DNA of 64,000 nucleotides, taken from assembly GCA_022703055.1 (NCBI GenBank), contig JAKLEP010000003.1:150238-214237 (forward strand), written 5' to 3'. This document shows, piece by piece, positions 238 to 63,266 of the stretch (positions are counted from its first letter, which is position 1; each line of letters starts with the position of its first letter). Source of the stretch: Candidatus Omnitrophota bacterium (GTDB lineage: Bacteria; Omnitrophota; Gorgyraeia; VGKH01). The translations under genes were made by a program, and so were the position numbers. Under the pieces are notes generated by a model. That model worked only from the letters and a program-made list of their open reading frames with translations. It was not told the origin of the DNA and did not search any database.

Positions 238-266
238 ATATTACTGCCTATAAGTAATTTTGTCAA
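238..266 (-). promoter_or_regulatory. sigma70-type promoter candidate for the 1..145 gene
   Basis: Minus strand TTGACA (266-261), 17-nt spacer, TAATAT (243-238), about 90 nt upstream of the ATG. Confidence 0.4.
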
Positions 267-290: not shown

Positions 291-392
291 AAATCTCAGT
301 CCCGGTTCCCTCTAATTAAATTTTCCTCATCAATGAGCGCTTGACTTATGGAGCCCAGCGACATAAGTCAATTGCGCGAATTGATCCCGAGC
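291..392 (-). repeat. structured palindromic repeat, copy A (three-segment hairpin 329-385)
   Basis: Blocks 302-340 (39 nt) and 373-392 (20 nt) are identical to 996-1034 and 1069-1088. The central arms TTGACTTATG/CATAAGTCAA differ from copy B only by compensatory changes. Confidence 0.7.
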
Positions 393-479
393 CTACGCAG
401 TCAATTTCGAAGAAATTGACAAGTGTTCAGGCGAGGGACAACTGTTCTTTTTTTACTCATCCTCTCCATACCAAATTTA

Positions 480-968
480 TTAAGGGATTGCATCGAATTC
501 CTTATATACCGTCCGTATTTCTGGGCCGCCGATTAGTTCTTGGAAACCACCTATTAAAATTAATTTTTTATTTGAACGGGGAATGACAAACAAACCAAAA
601 GGCTCAGCTTTTTCGGGAGGCTGTCCTGACTGATAAATCATTGCGCGCGTATGAAGGTAAATGGCCTGGCGAGTTTCTCTGACTTTAACCAGATCAATAC
701 CGTCGCAATTGAAAGATTGGCCACCAAAAACCGCAACTACCATATTAGAACGAAAATTGACTCGAGGCATAGCCACGATATTATCCGTATGTCTCTTCCA
801 TAGATTTACCAAATCATCCTGGTTAAAAACTCGATCATATTCTTTTTTAATAATATTACTGTGCGGACCGCTAATTTTTTCTACAATCTTAACCGGCATT
901 CCTTTTATATAAAGAAAGACGAAACTAATTAAAGCTACAACTAACAAAATTAACGCTATTCTTTTCAT
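480..968 (-). CDS. hypothetical exported/membrane-anchored protein (162 aa)
   Basis: N-terminal hydrophobic signal/anchor MKRIALILLVVALISFVFLYI. GGGAGG lies upstream of the ATG. No domain confidently recognised; there is only a weak resemblance to PrcB-type C-terminal domains. Confidence 0.6.
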   Translation of the reverse strand: MKRIALILLVVALISFVFLYIKGMPVKIVEKISGPHSNIIKKEYDRVFNQDDLVNLWKRHTDNIVAMPRVNFRSNMVVAVFGGQSFNCDGIDLVKVRETRQAIYLHTRAMIYQSGQPPEKAEPFGLFVIPRSNKKLILIGGFQELIGGPEIRTVYKEFDAIP

Positions 969-984
969 TTTGCCTCCCTACCAT

Positions 985-1088
985 AAATTTGAGGACCGGT
1001 TCCCTCTAATTAAATTTTCCTCATCAATGAGCGCGCAACTTATGAAACGACAGTGAACATAAGTTGCATGCGCGAATTGATCCCGAGC
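985..1088 (-). repeat. structured palindromic repeat, copy B (three-segment hairpin 1023-1081)
   Basis: Same conserved blocks as copy A. The central arms GCAACTTATG/CATAAGTTGC flank a 13-nt loop. The repeat lies between the XRE gene stop and the 480..968 gene start. Confidence 0.7.
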
Positions 1089-1104: not shown

Positions 1105-1148
1105 GGGCGCGCGCCCGAAATTTCAGATTTATGGCGCGCGCCCGAAAT
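1105..1148. repeat. tandem 16-nt direct repeat containing a GC-only palindrome
   Basis: GGCGCGCGCCCGAAAT occurs at 1106-1121 and 1133-1148. The first copy forms the perfect 12-nt palindrome GGGCGCGCGCCC (1105-1116). The second copy encodes the last codons of the XRE-family gene. Confidence 0.7.
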
Positions 1149-1827
1149 CTAATTCATCTAAATTCTCAGGCGCTGCCGCGTTTAAATCGATGGATAGCGG
1201 CGTATCGGAATTGTAGGTCAATCTTACACTGGCATGGTTCTTAAAATGCAGCTCAAAGAATTTATCATTGTAAACGCAGCCTATGAACTCTTTTAATTTA
1301 AAATAAAACCGCGCATGTTTTGCGCTAAAGCCCATAAGATTCTCAGCCTCGTATTCTATGCAATAATTATGCTCGCCAACCGGCAGGGCCGAATGATTAA
1401 CGTAATCGCAAAAAAGCGGATAAATTGCAGTATGCTTGTCCTTGTCTTCATCGGAGCAGCGGAAAAATACAGGCTTATATTTTAACTCGATATTTAACTC
1501 GTTAAACAGATAGCGGGCATCCTTCTCGCTGCGGACAAAATCCACCAGGATCCTGGCATATTTGGCATCCCTGATATTCTTCTTGAATTCCTCCCTGACC
1601 GCCTCATTGATCCTTTTTCCCGCCTGGATAAGATCCGACAGCTTAAAGCCCAAGGCTGCGGCAATCCTGTCAAGCGACTCAAGTGTGCCGGTAATTTGAT
1701 TATCCTCAATCCCGGTAAGTGTCTCTATATTGATGCCGCTTCTTTCCGAGACAATTTGCAGGCTTATCCCCTGCTTTTCTCGAAACTGTCGAATCGTATT
1801 TCCGATTAAAATTTGGGCTTTCTTCAT
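1129..1827 (-). CDS. XRE-family helix-turn-helix transcriptional regulator with an unrecognised ~150-aa C-terminal domain
   Basis: N-terminal Cro/C1-type HTH: IGNTIRQFREKQGISLQIVSERSGINIETLTGIEDNQ. Confidence 0.75.
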   Translation of the reverse strand: MKKAQILIGNTIRQFREKQGISLQIVSERSGINIETLTGIEDNQITGTLESLDRIAAALGFKLSDLIQAGKRINEAVREEFKKNIRDAKYARILVDFVRSEKDARYLFNELNIELKYKPVFFRCSDEDKDKHTAIYPLFCDYVNHSALPVGEHNYCIEYEAENLMGFSAKHARFYFKLKEFIGCVYNDKFFELHFKNHASVRLTYNSDTPLSIDLNAAAPENLDELDFGRAP

Positions 1828-57519: not shown

Positions 57520-57756
57520 TTATCTCCTCTTTTTACCTCCACGCACCATCTTGGCGCAAGAGATGTCACCTTTCTTATCGATGAAATAGAGGAATCCTAC
57601 TTTCTTCTTTACCCCTACCTTTGCTACCTTTTCCGGCTTTCCGCCTTTTTTCTTTCCGCGTGCCATCTTAGCTCTGGAAACATCGCCTTTTTTGTCGACG
57701 AAATAAAGGTAGCCTTTCACCTTTTTGACTCCAACCTTTGCGACTTTCATTGCCAT
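57520..57756 (-). CDS. 78-aa highly basic protein made of two ~37-aa tandem repeats
   Basis: The repeats are KVAKVGVKKVKGYLYFVDKKGDVSRAKMARG and KVAKVGVKKKVGFLYFIDKKGDISCAKMVRG. A strong GGGGGG SD lies upstream. Confidence 0.65.
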   Translation of the reverse strand: MAMKVAKVGVKKVKGYLYFVDKKGDVSRAKMARGKKKGGKPEKVAKVGVKKKVGFLYFIDKKGDISCAKMVRGGKKRR

Positions 57757-57774
57757 AACTAATTCACCCCCCTT

Positions 57775-61442: not shown

Positions 61443-62165
61443 TTATTTCTTTATGGTTTCCAAAACATCCTGCATACTAAAAAGTCCCGATTTCTTACCC
61501 TGTAAAAACTTAGCTGCCGTTAAGGCGCCTTTGGCAAAAATATCCCTGGTTTTTGCAGAATGGCTAAGCTTAATCGTATCCCACTGGCTTTCAAAGATAA
61601 CCTCGTGATCTCCAATTATCTCGCCCTCGCGTATCGATTGGATATCCGAGACATCTTTTCCTGCAGAATCCTTAATTACTTGCGCCAGCTGCTTTGCCGT
61701 TCCCGACGGGGCATCCTTTTTATGCACATGATGAGCCTCGATAATCTTGACCGAATAATCGGGAATTCTGCTCGCCGCTTCCTGAGCAAGTTTAAATAAC
61801 AAATTAACTCCTATCGACATATTAGGTGAAAAGACAACTGCAATATTTCTAGCGGAATCAGCGATTATTTTCTTTTGCTCATCATTCATAGCTGTAGTCC
61901 CGATAACCATTGACTTTCTATATTTTACGCAAGCGTTAAGGTGTTCTATTGTTGCTTCTGGCGATGTAAACTCAATCAAACAATCCGCCAGATTAACCAC
62001 GGACAAATCATCGCTAATCTTGATATTGCCGATTTTGCTGCCTATCGCCTGATGGCCTTTGGCTTCAATAGCAGCAACTACCCGGAAATCTTCATCAGAT
62101 AGAGCTAAATCGATAATCCGAGCACCCATCTTTCCTGCGCAACCGCTTACTGCTAACTTTATCAT
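61443..62165 (-). CDS. dapB: 4-hydroxy-tetrahydrodipicolinate reductase
   Basis: IKLAVSGCAGKMG and EAHHVHKKDAPSGTA motifs. The ATG at 62165 follows AAGGGG; the track start at 62189 lies inside the upstream hairpin. Confidence 0.9.
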   Translation of the reverse strand: MIKLAVSGCAGKMGARIIDLALSDEDFRVVAAIEAKGHQAIGSKIGNIKISDDLSVVNLADCLIEFTSPEATIEHLNACVKYRKSMVIGTTAMNDEQKKIIADSARNIAVVFSPNMSIGVNLLFKLAQEAASRIPDYSVKIIEAHHVHKKDAPSGTAKQLAQVIKDSAGKDVSDIQSIREGEIIGDHEVIFESQWDTIKLSHSAKTRDIFAKGALTAAKFLQGKKSGLFSMQDVLETIKK

Positions 62166-62175
62166 TTTACCCCTT

Positions 62176-62381
62176 TTTAATGAGCGCATAACTTACGGAG
62201 TTAGAAACGACGTAAGTTATAAGCGCAAATTAAACCCCGCCCTCTATGCCCGCAATTTAAACTTAACGTTTTAGAGAACGAAATAATCTTTTTTGCGTTT
62301 CCCACCCAATGCCAACGCTTAGAGGGCGGGGCAAATTCAGCCTACAAACTTACGTTCACTTCCGTTCCATAAGTTTGGGCT
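62176..62381 (-). repeat. composite structured element: two ACTTAYG-loop-CRTAAGT hairpins flanking a GC-rich 12-bp stem
   Basis: Hairpin 1 is 62339-62381 and hairpin 2 is 62184-62226 (extended 62176-62234). The long-range stem pairs CCCCGCCCTCTA (62235-62246) with TAGAGGGCGGGG (62320-62331). The element fills the whole dapA-dapB spacer. Confidence 0.7.
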
Positions 62382-63266
62382 TCATTTGCCTTTCAATAAA
62401 CCGTAATCCTTTAAAGCCTTCTTAACTTTCTCCAGATTTTCATCTGACATGGTGCATAGCGGCAGCCTCAAATCCGGACTGCACATACCTAGTAATCCCA
62501 TCGCGGTCTTTACCGGGATAGGATTGGTTTCAATAAACATCGCCTTGGTTAGAGGCAGGAGCTTATAGTGGATTTCTTCGGCCTTCTGAATATTCCCTTT
62601 CTTAAATTCACTGACCATATTGGCTACATCGCGCGGGACAATATTGGCGACGACGGAAATTACTCCTATTCCGCCAATAGCCATAAGCGGCAAGGTCAAA
62701 GAATCATCGCCAGAAATCAATTGAAAACTCTTAGGGCAAATCTGCCTAATCCTTGACATCTGGTCCAAAGAACCCGAAGCCTCCTTGACGCCTACAAGAT
62801 TCTTGCAATCATTGGCGAGCCTAGCAATAGTCTCAGGCTCAATGTTTACTCCTGTCCTTCCGGCAATATTATAAAGGATAATCGGTATCTTGACTGAATC
62901 GGCAATCGCCTTAAAATGCAAATACAGCCCTTTTTGCGTCGGCCGATTATAATAAGGGCTGACCTGTAATGACGCATCAGCTCCGACCTTTTCTGCATGC
63001 TTAGTAAGCATTATCGCTTCTTCGGTGGAGTTAGAACCCGTTCCGGCCATAACGGGAACTCTTTTATTGACTATCTCAACAGTCAATTCAATCACCCGAT
63101 CATGCTCTTCGAAATTCAAAGTAGGCGATTCTCCGGTTGTGCCACAGGGCACTATCCCACTTGTTCCATTCTTAATCTGGAATTCGATTAATTCCGCATA
63201 CTTTTTCTCGTCAATCTTCCCATTCTTAAAAGGCGTGACTATCGCTACCAATGAACCATCAAACAT
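62382..63266 (-). CDS. dapA: 4-hydroxy-tetrahydrodipicolinate synthase
   Basis: GSLVAIVTPF, GTTGES, and the active-site Lys region. The ATG at 63266 follows AAGGGGGA; the track start at 63317 would overlap dapF by 59 nt. Confidence 0.9.
   Translation of the reverse strand: MFDGSLVAIVTPFKNGKIDEKKYAELIEFQIKNGTSGIVPCGTTGESPTLNFEEHDRVIELTVEIVNKRVPVMAGTGSNSTEEAIMLTKHAEKVGADASLQVSPYYNRPTQKGLYLHFKAIADSVKIPIILYNIAGRTGVNIEPETIARLANDCKNLVGVKEASGSLDQMSRIRQICPKSFQLISGDDSLTLPLMAIGGIGVISVVANIVPRDVANMVSEFKKGNIQKAEEIHYKLLPLTKAMFIETNPIPVKTAMGLLGMCSPDLRLPLCTMSDENLEKVKKALKDYGLLKGK

Follow-up and report, generated by a model that had tools for sequence, protein, structure and literature searches.

A dispersed family of hairpin repeats at gene boundaries in Omnitrophota, nested at some loci with a minimal GIY-YIG nuclease gene

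Copies A and B around an ORFan gene

In this manuscript, we use the term window to refer to the whole 64-kb stretch of DNA that was analysed. Near its left end, two structured elements, copies A and B, lie on either side of a minus-strand gene for a 162-aa protein. Each consists of a hairpin (H1), an adjacent second module (H2) and a short tail, arranged as follows:

238..266, minus strand: promoter-like site TTGACA-17-TAATAT, downstream of copy A (10/12 matches; a consensus match only)
302-440: copy A as a whole, downstream of the 162-aa gene and upstream of the promoter-like site
302..328, plus strand: 27-nt tail of copy A, identical to 996-1022 and common to A and B only
329..388, plus strand: H1 hairpin of copy A, of the GCGC-clamp type (H1a); covariance model (CM) R1, 72.8 bits, E = 1.3e-17
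386..440, plus strand: second module of copy A (H2A), CCCGAG-GCCTA...inner 9-bp hairpin 400-420...TCAGGC-GAGGG, a conserved nested hairpin
480..968, minus strand: 162-aa gene, predicted membrane or exported protein, between A and B
996-1100: copy B as a whole, upstream of the 162-aa gene
996..1022, plus strand: 27-nt tail of copy B, between H1 and the start of the 162-aa gene
1023..1084, plus strand: H1a hairpin of copy B, 60 nt upstream of the start codon of the 162-aa gene; CM R1, 72.2 bits
1080..1100, plus strand: short H2 module of copy B, TCCCGAG-CGAAGC-CGAGGGA, a GCGAAGC mini-hairpin with a tandem G-A motif

The promoter-like site faces the next gene, an N6_N4 methyltransferase, and since it lies downstream of copy A, copy A falls in the 3' region of the 162-aa gene. 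The first-pass annotation, which put one copy in the 5' region of the gene and the other after it, was thus right about the placement. The 162-aa protein belongs to no Pfam family and a homolog search returned only the protein itself, which makes it an ORFan; its gene is not part of the repeat.

The two copies share exact blocks of 39 nt (302-340 and 996-1034; 0.00 matches expected from dinucleotide shuffles) and 20 nt (373-392 and 1069-1088; 0.02 expected), and both identities held on recheck. Over 93 nt the copies align with 86% identity, and all 11 mismatches and both gaps are confined to the core, where the stems differ by compensatory changes (TTGACTTATG/CATAAGTCAA vs GCAACTTATG/CATAAGTTGC), as had been noted earlier. 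The three-segment fold proposed for each copy was reproduced as a three-tier hairpin, in which an outer ATCAAT/ATTGAT helix is followed by a GA/GA internal loop, a GCGC clamp, a 2-nt bulge and a 10-bp stem. Predicted RNA folding energies are -27.9 kcal/mol for A and -26.4 kcal/mol for B (z = -6.6 and -7.9, respectively), and as DNA each copy folds with -16.6 kcal/mol (z about -5.5). In copy A, the tandem G-A form is on the plus strand.

H2A is 88-92% identical over 49 nt to two other loci (L015 and L028), and 9 of its 19 predicted pairs are compensatory; the first-pass annotation was right that TCCCGAG...CGAGGGA pairs and that a further 9-bp hairpin forms at 400-420, and both features are conserved with covariation in other genomes. 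The short H2 of copy B belongs to a CCYGAG...CGARGG class that also occurs at six other loci (L027, L049, L054, L059, L083 and L117). Neither module is of the CCCnGCAC terminal inverted repeat (TIR) class described below. The 27-nt tail has no counterpart in the other genomes compared; in copy A, its TCCCTC (307-312) can pair with GAGGGA (434-439), and this closing helix is present in the predicted fold.

If A and B had simply arisen by local duplication of one intergenic segment, unconnected to any family, this would fit the 59 flanking nucleotides that are identical between A and B, including the tail found nowhere else. However, the 11 core differences are all compensatory in the stems, none falls in the flanks, and the hairpin occurs in at least 120 other stretches, so that this reading is refuted as a full account, in agreement with the earlier judgement that A and B do not look like a plain duplication. 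Local duplication or an exchange of the core may still be the source of the shared tail.

The 162-aa gene had also been described as cassette-like, and two direct repeats with hairpin potential around one ORFan gene do suggest an integron-type or other recombination cassette, with attC-like repeats and a mobile gene. But the repeats end in CCGGTTCCCTC and GAGGGA and lack RYYYAAC/GTTRRRY core sites, and the Pfam list for the 20-kb neighbourhood holds no integrase within 10 kb. Moreover, the same repeats occur between dapA and dapB, rho and rpmE, and S18 and L9, and consecutive copies in the same orientation around one ordinary gene are common. The A/B arrangement is identical in all 9 assemblies of the window's species, with no presence/absence polymorphism of the gene at 480..968. 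A cassette is therefore barely credible.

Structure, distribution and placement of the H1 family

The H1 consensus is about 60 nt long and reads TTxAAT-GA-GCGC-NNN-ACTTAYG-loop-CRTAAGT-NNN-WW-GCGC-GA-ATTx'A. A pattern scan found the hairpin in at least 120 stretches, nearly all titled Omnitrophota or Omnitrophica, with Velamenicoccus archaeovorus among them, and a covariance model run over 936 kb (0.94 Mb) of sequence yielded 218 non-overlapping copies, including four from the window. The nhmmer program was less sensitive than the covariance model, and missed one of these four (copy D, below). In a 115-sequence alignment, 97.8% of cells pair, and 9 of the 19 pairs change on both sides (156 cells), values reached by none of 500 shuffles. 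The H1 hairpin is a selected secondary structure with real covariation, as had been suspected from the window. The loops, previously called unrelated, are only partly so: most family members have a GA...GA frame around a small variable helix, with loop lengths of 7 to 17 nt. This range of loop lengths, together with a covarying Y/R pair and covarying arms, led us, on reading the sequences, to reject a promoter interpretation of the hairpin (-35/-10 elements in the arms, or an ECF-like AAC...CGT).

The family is dispersed across Omnitrophota and previously undescribed. At the gathering threshold, Rfam matched only a tRNA in the whole window, and a permissive Rfam scan of 150-1250 returned snoRNA and lncRNA matches at chance level only (E >= 3). 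A hairpin scan of 2.9 million viral contigs gave 0 matches, and the literature searched holds no account of the repeat or of a link between GIY-YIG proteins and such a repeat. Copies within one genome are not near-identical, and hence there is no sign of a recent burst.

H1 copies are exclusively intergenic, and most abut either the 5' side of a Shine-Dalgarno site or the 3' side of a stop codon. An open reading frame of at least 60 aa begins no more than 25 nt past the hairpin in 80 of 117 copies; some starts lie only 4-7 nt past it with no visible Shine-Dalgarno site, and copies are also found after tRNA 3' ends. Neighbouring copies form convergent pairs in 49 cases and divergent pairs in 2. 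The median gap is 43 nt, and TIR palindromes make up the spacers; we refer to these arrangements as H1/TIR composites. In the composites, the upstream stop codon lies within the outer helix. The GCGC clamp is on the start-side hairpin in 33 of 39 composites and never on the stop-side hairpin, and polarity relative to transcription is fixed (38/39 composites). In the commonest placement, the three tandem G-A motifs are on the strand antisense to the downstream gene.

A conserved, covarying structure in untranslated regions could also be a cis-regulatory RNA (leader or riboswitch-like) acting on the 162-aa gene or its neighbour. But hundreds of unrelated genes, in more than 100 genomes and at least 120 stretches, have the same hairpin in front of them, most orthologs lack it upstream, and orthologous junctions differ in whether they carry it (see below), so this gene-specific reading is not supported. 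In addition, the elements match no Rfam family, an aptamer-like core of variable length is missing from the hairpin, and the 162-aa gene is an ORFan. The probability of such a regulator is close to negligible; the hairpins probably do not regulate the particular gene that they flank.

Composites, the GIY-YIG nuclease and turnover

A composite in the window is in the dapA-dapB spacer, where the first-pass annotation had reported related hairpins. These are real, and form a pair:

62176..62237, plus strand: copy C, an H1a hairpin that abuts the Shine-Dalgarno site and start codon of dapB on their 5' side; CM, 74 bits
62235..62331, no strand assigned: palindromic C-D spacer, TIRs CCCCGCCCTCTATGC / GCTTAGAGGGCGGGG around 67 nt
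62328..62389, minus strand: copy D, H1 hairpin of the variable-clamp type (H1b, AGCC/GGCT); CM, 43.9 bits, E = 1.7e-09

The identity of dapB was confirmed (ATG at 62165, minus strand), and the dapA stop codon, TGA (62382-62384), is inside the outer helix of copy D. The TIRs of the C-D spacer, asymmetry included, are those that flank a GIY-YIG open reading frame at two other loci (L152 and L199). The spacer itself holds no recognisable remnant of this frame, the TIRs alone matching, and no GIY-YIG gene is present within the 64-kb window. We conclude that the dapA-dapB spacer is a full-length gene-less unit of the family.

Where the spacer between hairpins is large enough for a gene, it encodes a GIY-YIG protein of 76-80 aa (PF01541) in all three cases, with matches above the curated cut-off (E = 2.9e-13 to 6.7e-10) and invariant Y3, Y5, Y16-G18, R25, H30 and E42; the GIY, YIG, Arg and Glu motifs are conserved. 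In a search that started from the protein, the frame is bracketed by H1 hairpins at about ten independent loci, and H1 is on both sides of the nuclease at L131, L132, L133, L136, L210 and L214 and in the L217 group. The family is thus nested with a GIY-YIG/TIR unit. TIR palindromes of the unit read CCCAGCACTAATTTT...AAAATTAGTGCTGGG, and TIRs bracket the frame in 56 of 76 homolog loci vs 0 of 76 shuffled controls. Homologs outside Omnitrophota keep the TIRs but not the outer hairpins; long outer hairpins as a general property of all homolog loci found no support (z < -2 in 29-30% vs 18% of controls). Homologs with the same TIRs also occur within 23S rRNA sequence (L137-L139 and L159).

The frame comprises the catalytic domain only. 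Its score against TIGR01453, for group I intron homing endonucleases, is 21 bits vs a cut-off of 56, and Rfam gave no intron match on the window elements. The closest solved relatives by sequence are PDB 1zg2 (E = 5.5e-05) and 1ywl (0.0026), with similarity confined to the N-terminal 32 residues; both are minimal GIY-YIG proteins of the UPF0213 / YhbQ type. Enzymes of the GIY-YIG superfamily are known as homing or repair nucleases, and we know of none that acts as a transposase or has strand-transfer activity.

One and the same gene junction can hold 130-280 nt in one species, where it is filled, and only -26 to +18 nt in another, where it is empty. For example, the S18-L9 junction is filled at L051 and empty at L108, and a junction filled at L097 and L076 is empty in the window (57756-57774). 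Three species compared at rho-rpmE show a unit with the nuclease gene, a pair without it and a solo hairpin. Among orthologs more generally, the presence of H1 is patchy, and most lack it upstream. The junctions compared gave no clear target-site duplication; TTAA stands at both ends in L051, L075 and L097, where it forms part of the outer helix, but is missing from L100, and a TTAA duplication is thus not consistent across copies.

We therefore favour the view that A and B are solo units (H1 plus adjacent H2) of a modular repeat family that is dispersed and insertion-polymorphic, and assign this reading a probability of about 0.7. Against it speak the lack of a clear target-site duplication and of near-identical copies within a genome, the uniform A/B arrangement in the 9 assemblies, the absence of a GIY-YIG gene from the window, the missing outer hairpins at homologs outside Omnitrophota, the record of GIY-YIG enzymes as homing or repair nucleases, and H2 modules in A and B that are not of the CCCnGCAC class. 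Of the options left in the first-pass annotation (structured RNA, or DNA of the REP, MITE or recombination-site type), the REP/MITE type is the one favoured by the evidence, and the recombination site is not.

A different view is that H1 is a generic RNA element selected by the host, with mobility secondary: the transcribed hairpin would be an RNase III-like intercistronic processing site, would stabilise the 5' or 3' end, or would serve as an insulator presenting the start codon or Shine-Dalgarno site. The near-invariance across the phylum and the exact abutment to stop codons and Shine-Dalgarno sites would fit this, and count against the repeat-family reading. The strict polarity in the composites, the strong RNA folds, the close starts and the copies after tRNA 3' ends described above also fit an RNA element. 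Copies also precede housekeeping genes (rpsJ, rplK, rpmE, groEL, gap and tpiA-like starts, with names read from N-terminal sequences). On the other hand, the element is patchy at orthologs and tightly coupled junctions without it are common, so it is dispensable. Nor do G-U vs A-C counts (10 vs 5 in lower stems and 12 vs 24 in upper stems) show a preferred RNA strand, and the antisense position of the tandem G-A motifs also argues against a function in the mRNA. We consider a host-selected RNA element unlikely, but well short of negligible.

How the repeat family spreads is a more tentative matter. That the GIY-YIG nuclease drives the spread has, in our estimate, close to an even chance; it is just as conceivable that the nuclease parasitises a repeat that was there before it. 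A full-length gene-less unit runs, in order, stop codon, H1b, TIR, short loop, TIR', H1a and Shine-Dalgarno site, and the gene-bearing form has the 76-80 aa nuclease frame between the TIRs, in the same direction as the host genes. The minimal nuclease, probably as a dimer, would make breaks on the CCCnGCAC...GTGCnGGG palindrome or on extruded hairpins, and recombinational repair of the breaks would copy units from site to site. Gene-less composites and solos may be deletion derivatives, or target sites not yet invaded. An insertion would survive only where the stop codon before it and the ribosome-binding site after it stay intact, a filter that would explain the exact abutment and polarity. 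The hairpins are putatively co-transcribed, and may also shape mRNA ends.

Known systems and significance

In behaviour, the family is MITE/REPIN-like, and it looks like a new kind of small mobile element. As in the REP/BIME and REPIN-RAYT systems of Proteobacteria, there are abundant intergenic palindromes, inverted doublets with a short spacer, multi-hairpin mosaics, one small enzyme gene flanked by repeats and, presumably, co-transcription with operons. In contrast, H1 is about 60 nt long with three helices and tandem G-A loops, rather than a 20-35 nt REP with a GTAG-type head; the enclosed frame is a 76-80 aa GIY-YIG nuclease, rather than a Y1 HUH transposase; and H1 is conserved phylum-wide, with strict polarity to flanking genes, where REPs are species- or genus-specific. 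One could still suppose a classical REP/REPIN mobilised by RAYT, with the GIY-YIG gene a mere passenger, given the density of extragenic palindromes (roughly 1-2 per 10 kb), the inverted doublets with short spacers, and the single-strand hairpin hallmarks (GCGAAGC and tandem G-A motifs). But there is no GTAG/GGAG-type 5' tetranucleotide, the consensus starting TTxAATGAGCGC, the unit is about twice REP size, and GIY-YIG is the only frame inside doublets, with no Y1 transposase seen in the sequence covered. We regard this as improbable.

MITEs such as the Neisseria Correia elements, ERIC/IRU, RUP and BOX are likewise 100-200-nt, inverted-repeat-bounded, intergenic, co-transcribed, present or absent at orthologous sites, and able to form long hairpins, which can be RNase III substrates. 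The present family is also a small, TIR-bounded non-coding unit in many copies with insertion polymorphism between species. However, MITEs derive from IS transposases and have target-site duplications, whereas none is evident here and the gene-bearing relative encodes a nuclease.

Small free-standing GIY-YIG frames are reported in intervening sequences, i.e., insertions that are not group I or II introns, in CPR bacteria, sparsely and in rRNA genes only (PMC11270868). These resemble the units described here, but no link to dispersed gene-less hairpin repeats is reported there (PMC11270868). As for free-standing homing endonuclease genes, the nuclease gene lies amid what appears to be its own split palindromic target, and filled and empty sites coexist; a homing endonuclease targets one allele, whereas the candidate target here is a repeat at about a hundred or more intergenic sites per genome. 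Proteins of the UPF0213 / YhbQ type are similarly single-domain, with conserved GIY, YIG, Arg and Glu motifs, and to our knowledge have no assigned function or repeat association.

Taken together with the presumed route of spread, the H1/TIR composites may be the non-autonomous population of a new class of interspersed element, with a minimal GIY-YIG nuclease (about 77 aa) as its sole enzyme: a counterpart of REPIN-RAYT that is driven by a nuclease and copied by recombination, with end hairpins built to sit harmlessly between stop codon and ribosome-binding site in operons, which may double as phylum-wide signals for mRNA processing or insulation. We offer this as a tentative proposal, with somewhat less than an even chance of being correct.

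Omnitrophota are widespread, mostly uncultured, ultra-small and partly predatory bacteria, and we know of essentially no description of their non-coding DNA. The observed density points to around a hundred or more copies in each genome. Being so common, and occupying entire spacers in housekeeping operons, such a repeat has consequences for gene calling, operon prediction and, because repeats break contigs, assembly; H1 is also a sequence marker specific to the phylum. Should the GIY-YIG link prove causal, small palindromic repeats would have a further, non-transposase route for their spread and persistence, and the minimal GIY-YIG (UPF0213-like) proteins, which are widespread, would gain a first biological role. 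Processing of the hairpins in mRNA, if it takes place, would make them natural insulators positioned exactly upstream of ribosome-binding sites.

Conservation and covariation of the H1 hairpin

The window contains four copies of a hairpin of about 60 nt, here termed H1; copies A and B flank the gene of a 162-aa protein, and copies C and D lie in the dapA-dapB spacer. Units with a GCGC clamp are designated H1a, and those with a variable clamp H1b. The core motif, ACTTAYG-N(5-25)-CRTAAGT, is found four times in the window versus 0.01 expected, and the hairpin has no match in Rfam. When one genome per species was scanned with the pattern GCGC-NNN-ACTTAYG-N(7-17)-CRTAAGT-N(3-6)-GCGC, at least 120 stretches matched, nearly all with Omnitrophota or Omnitrophica titles; copy number and taxonomic range as given here are minimum estimates. 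The matches listed include the complete genome of Velamenicoccus archaeovorus, and the single Calditrichia match among them looks like chance. The window organism is itself an Omnitrophota MAG from anaerobic digesters, and the hairpin had no match in 2.9 million scanned viral contigs.

H1 is a conserved, covarying family. An alignment of 115 copies gives the consensus TTxAAT-GA-GCGC-NNN-ACTTAYG-GA-(small helix and loop)-GA-CRTAAGT-NNN-WW-GCGC-GA-ATTx'A-CCC, with 97.8% of paired cells able to pair and two-sided changes in nine of the 19 pairs (156 cells). None of 500 shuffles reached any of the observed pairing or covariation measures, and pairing drops to 16-41% in slid registers. The selected secondary structure proposed in the first-pass annotation is therefore borne out by covariation. 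A covariance model built from this alignment finds exactly four copies in the window and 218 non-overlapping copies in 936 kb (fetched loci from other genomes plus the window), or approximately one per 10 kb with one seed copy per locus removed, a rough figure and a biased one, since the loci had been selected by a match. In some intergenic regions, two or three near-identical units are repeated directly in tandem (L014 4495-4774, L020 6602-6820, L111 5145-5406).

Position, polarity and turnover at gene boundaries

H1 units are confined to gene boundaries, and they have a polarity. When the element is taken on the neighboring gene's strand, an ORF of at least 60 aa starts within 25 nt after 80 of 117 copies, usually as GCGC-TCATTxA-AGGAGG-N-ATG. 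Many of these genes are housekeeping genes, as read from their N-terminal sequences (S10, L11, L31, L24, S14, GroEL, GAPDH and TPI-like starts). In the second type of placement, the hairpin lies in the opposite orientation directly 3' of a stop codon, which is the TAA or TGA within TTxAATGA; tRNA 3' ends precede some copies. Convergent pairs of neighboring copies outnumber divergent ones by 49 to two (median gap 43 nt), and 37 of the neighboring pairs lie between co-directional genes, where they occupy the full space from stop codon to Shine-Dalgarno site. In composites (H1b-palindrome-H1a units), the start-side hairpin has the GCGC clamp in 33 of 39 and the stop-side hairpin in none, having instead GGAC (15), AGCC (7), CGAC (6) or others; the start side scores better in 38 of the 39. 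At L109 ~6733 (minus orientation), L028, L031, L039, L101 and L112, a hairpin is located 4-7 nt before the ATG with no visible Shine-Dalgarno site, and the genes preceded in this way include an rpsJ-like start.

The dapA-dapB spacer, where related hairpins had been noted from the sequence, is such a composite, consisting of D (with the dapA stop codon), a palindrome, C, and the dapB Shine-Dalgarno site. Both hairpins match the covariance model:

62176-62237, plus strand: copy C, H1a
62328-62389, minus strand: copy D, H1b

Units have been gained and lost at orthologous sites. Within orthologous gene families of the fetched loci, the hairpin is usually upstream of only one of three or four members, and many syntenic gene pairs are separated by -26 to +18 nt (tight or overlapping) in one species and by 130-280 nt with one to three hairpins in another. 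The S18-L9 junction is TAA-GAG-ATG in L108 versus a 215-nt composite in L051; L097 and L076 have a filled junction where the window (57756-57774) has an empty one. A gene-specific regulator was rejected on this patchiness among orthologs, with junctions filled or empty by species. Between a stop and a start codon in L066 (1119-1146) lies a 27-nt fragment that is similar to the start of H1b (GCGAGGACATAAGTTAAGTG) and may be a deletion scar; in related genomes this site is either empty or occupied by a full composite.

Copies A and B and the 162-aa gene

All genes around copies A and B are on the minus strand, so that B is upstream and A downstream of the 162-aa gene:

329-388, plus strand: copy A, H1 (covariance model)
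1023-1084, plus strand: copy B, H1 (covariance model)
266-238: promoter-like TTGACA-17-TAATAT site, with copy A ahead of it
minus strand, next after the 162-aa gene: N6_N4 methyltransferase gene
480..968, minus strand: 162-aa ORFan, predicted membrane or exported protein
1129..1827, minus strand: HTH gene

Both are solo (single-unit) H1a-type copies oriented in the usual way, the strand with the tandem G-A form being antisense to the genes. The fold first drawn for them holds: ATCAAT/ATTGAT form the outer helix, the internal loop is symmetric (GA/GA), and the GCGC clamp leads via a 2-nt bulge to a 10-bp stem. Calculated RNA free energies are -27.9 (A) and -26.4 kcal/mol (B), with z of -6.6 and -7.9, respectively, and the DNA value is -16.6 kcal/mol for each. 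The two identity blocks also stand (302-340 and 996-1034, 39 nt; 373-392 and 1069-1088, 20 nt), neither of them expected by chance, and the stem differences between them are indeed compensatory. An alignment of the two copies (86% over 93 nt) places every one of its 11 mismatches and both of its gaps in the core. Uniform drift cannot give identical flanks with swapped cores: across 302-392 and 996-1088, 59 identical flanking nucleotides contrast with a core of ~35 nt that has 11 differing positions and two gaps. Since the flanks are identical while the cores are swapped, with all stem changes compensatory, the pattern suggests exchange or gene conversion between hairpin copies.

A second hairpin module follows H1 in both copies. 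In A it spans 386-440, includes the previously noted 9-bp hairpin at 400-420, and is itself a conserved family (88-92% identity to L015 and L028 over 49 nt; 19 predicted pairs, nine of them compensatory); in B it is a short hairpin, CCCGAG-CGAAGC-CGAGGG. For the 27-nt tail common to A and B (302-328, 996-1022), no counterpart was found elsewhere, and in the predicted fold its TCCCTC could pair with GAGGGA to close the whole unit. Just past copy B, at 1099-1150, are two tandem or inverted copies of a GC-rich palindrome (GGGCGCGCGCCCGAAAT-type), which overlap the 3' end of the HTH gene.

The first-pass annotation also regarded the bracketed gene as cassette-like. This was not borne out: the repeat ends have no attC core sites, no integrase was found nearby, and a single ordinary gene between same-orientation copies is common (L041, L077, L033, L051, L092). 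Nine independent assemblies of the window's species are identical over this 1.1-kb region, with no presence/absence difference among them. The 162-aa protein finds only itself among 5.8 billion proteins and has no Pfam family. Its bracketing simply follows from the occupation of each intergenic space by one repeat unit.

Nesting with a GIY-YIG nuclease, and possible origins

The spacers of the 49 convergent pairs are palindromes made of terminal inverted repeats (TIRs), which fall into a few classes (CCCAGCACTAATTTT, CCCTTGACA, CCCCACACCCAG, CCCCCCACCACTTT, CCCCGCACC, CCCCGCCCTCTA). Only three spacers are gene-sized (258-262 nt), and each of them codes for a GIY-YIG domain protein of 76-80 aa (PF01541, E down to 2.9e-13). 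In the reverse approach, a metagenome scan with an alignment of this protein yielded 80 loci. Next to the closest homologs (63-70% identity), H1 lies no more than ~16 nt from the ORF, on both sides in L131, L132, L133 and L136, and on one side in L130 and L155. Six more homologs came from the protein database, the named members all labelled Omnitrophota; H1 is on both sides in three (L210, L214, L217 group), at the contig edge in one, and absent in two. H1 is thus physically nested with the GIY-YIG/TIR unit, and the ORF is co-directional with host genes in every context (stop, H1b, TIR, ORF, TIR', H1a, Shine-Dalgarno site). TIRs with a CCCnGCAC core directly bracket 56 of 76 homolog ORFs versus none of 76 shuffled controls, and more distant homologs keep the TIRs and have no H1. 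The TIRs of the C-D spacer (CCCCGCCCTCTATGC / GCTTAGAGGGCGGGG), and their asymmetry, are the same as those around the nuclease ORF in L152 and L199. The orthologous rho-rpmE junction is in three states in three species:

L214 1432-1826: nuclease-bearing composite
L115 7029-7205: gene-less H1b-palindrome-H1a pair
L104 3838-3951: solo H1a and a small palindrome

Some of the more distant homologs, with CCCAGCACT-type terminal repeats, interrupt 23S rRNA domain I sequence in the manner of intervening sequences (L137, L138, L139, L159), which agrees with a report of GIY-YIG ORFs within rRNA insertions that are not introns in CPR bacteria (PMC11270868).

Spacers of one type, ~95-100 nt long, have terminal repeats of different classes and an internal sequence in common (TTTTGAGAAAGCACTT...TTACAAAAA); they may represent a small RNA or a second cargo:

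L086 2481-2717, 7583-7814
L109 4847-5115, 5584-5843
L112 2621-2853
L122 7003-7290

In L218 and L219, the genes flanking the GIY-YIG/H1 unit (1501-1734) have called products of 23,706 (19,857 in L219) and 2,989 residues. Many contigs with the Omnitrophota GIY-YIG subfamily (proteins P0002-P0121) are just 0.4-2 kb, as expected if surrounding repeats break metagenome assemblies.

We envisage that the nuclease, probably as a dimer, would cut the palindromic TIR site or extruded hairpins, that repair of the breaks by recombination would spread the units, and that only insertions preserving the upstream stop codon and downstream ribosome-binding site would survive. Gene-less units may have arisen by deletion from nuclease-bearing ones; alternatively, a repeat that already existed may have been invaded by the nuclease gene. 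One strand has GCGAAGC mini-hairpins and three tandem G-A motifs, features typical of very stable hairpins in single-stranded DNA, and G-U versus A-C counts give no RNA strand preference; on both grounds we tend to favor an interpretation at the DNA level. Polarity this strict and abutment this exact would also suit a possible role of the hairpins in RNA processing, stabilization or insulation.

We found no description of the H1 repeat, or of a GIY-YIG gene linked to dispersed hairpin repeats, in a literature search of incomplete coverage, which is absence of evidence only. We rate the H1 family as an interspersed palindromic repeat of the MITE/REPIN type, unusual in its partner enzyme and its phylum-wide conservation.
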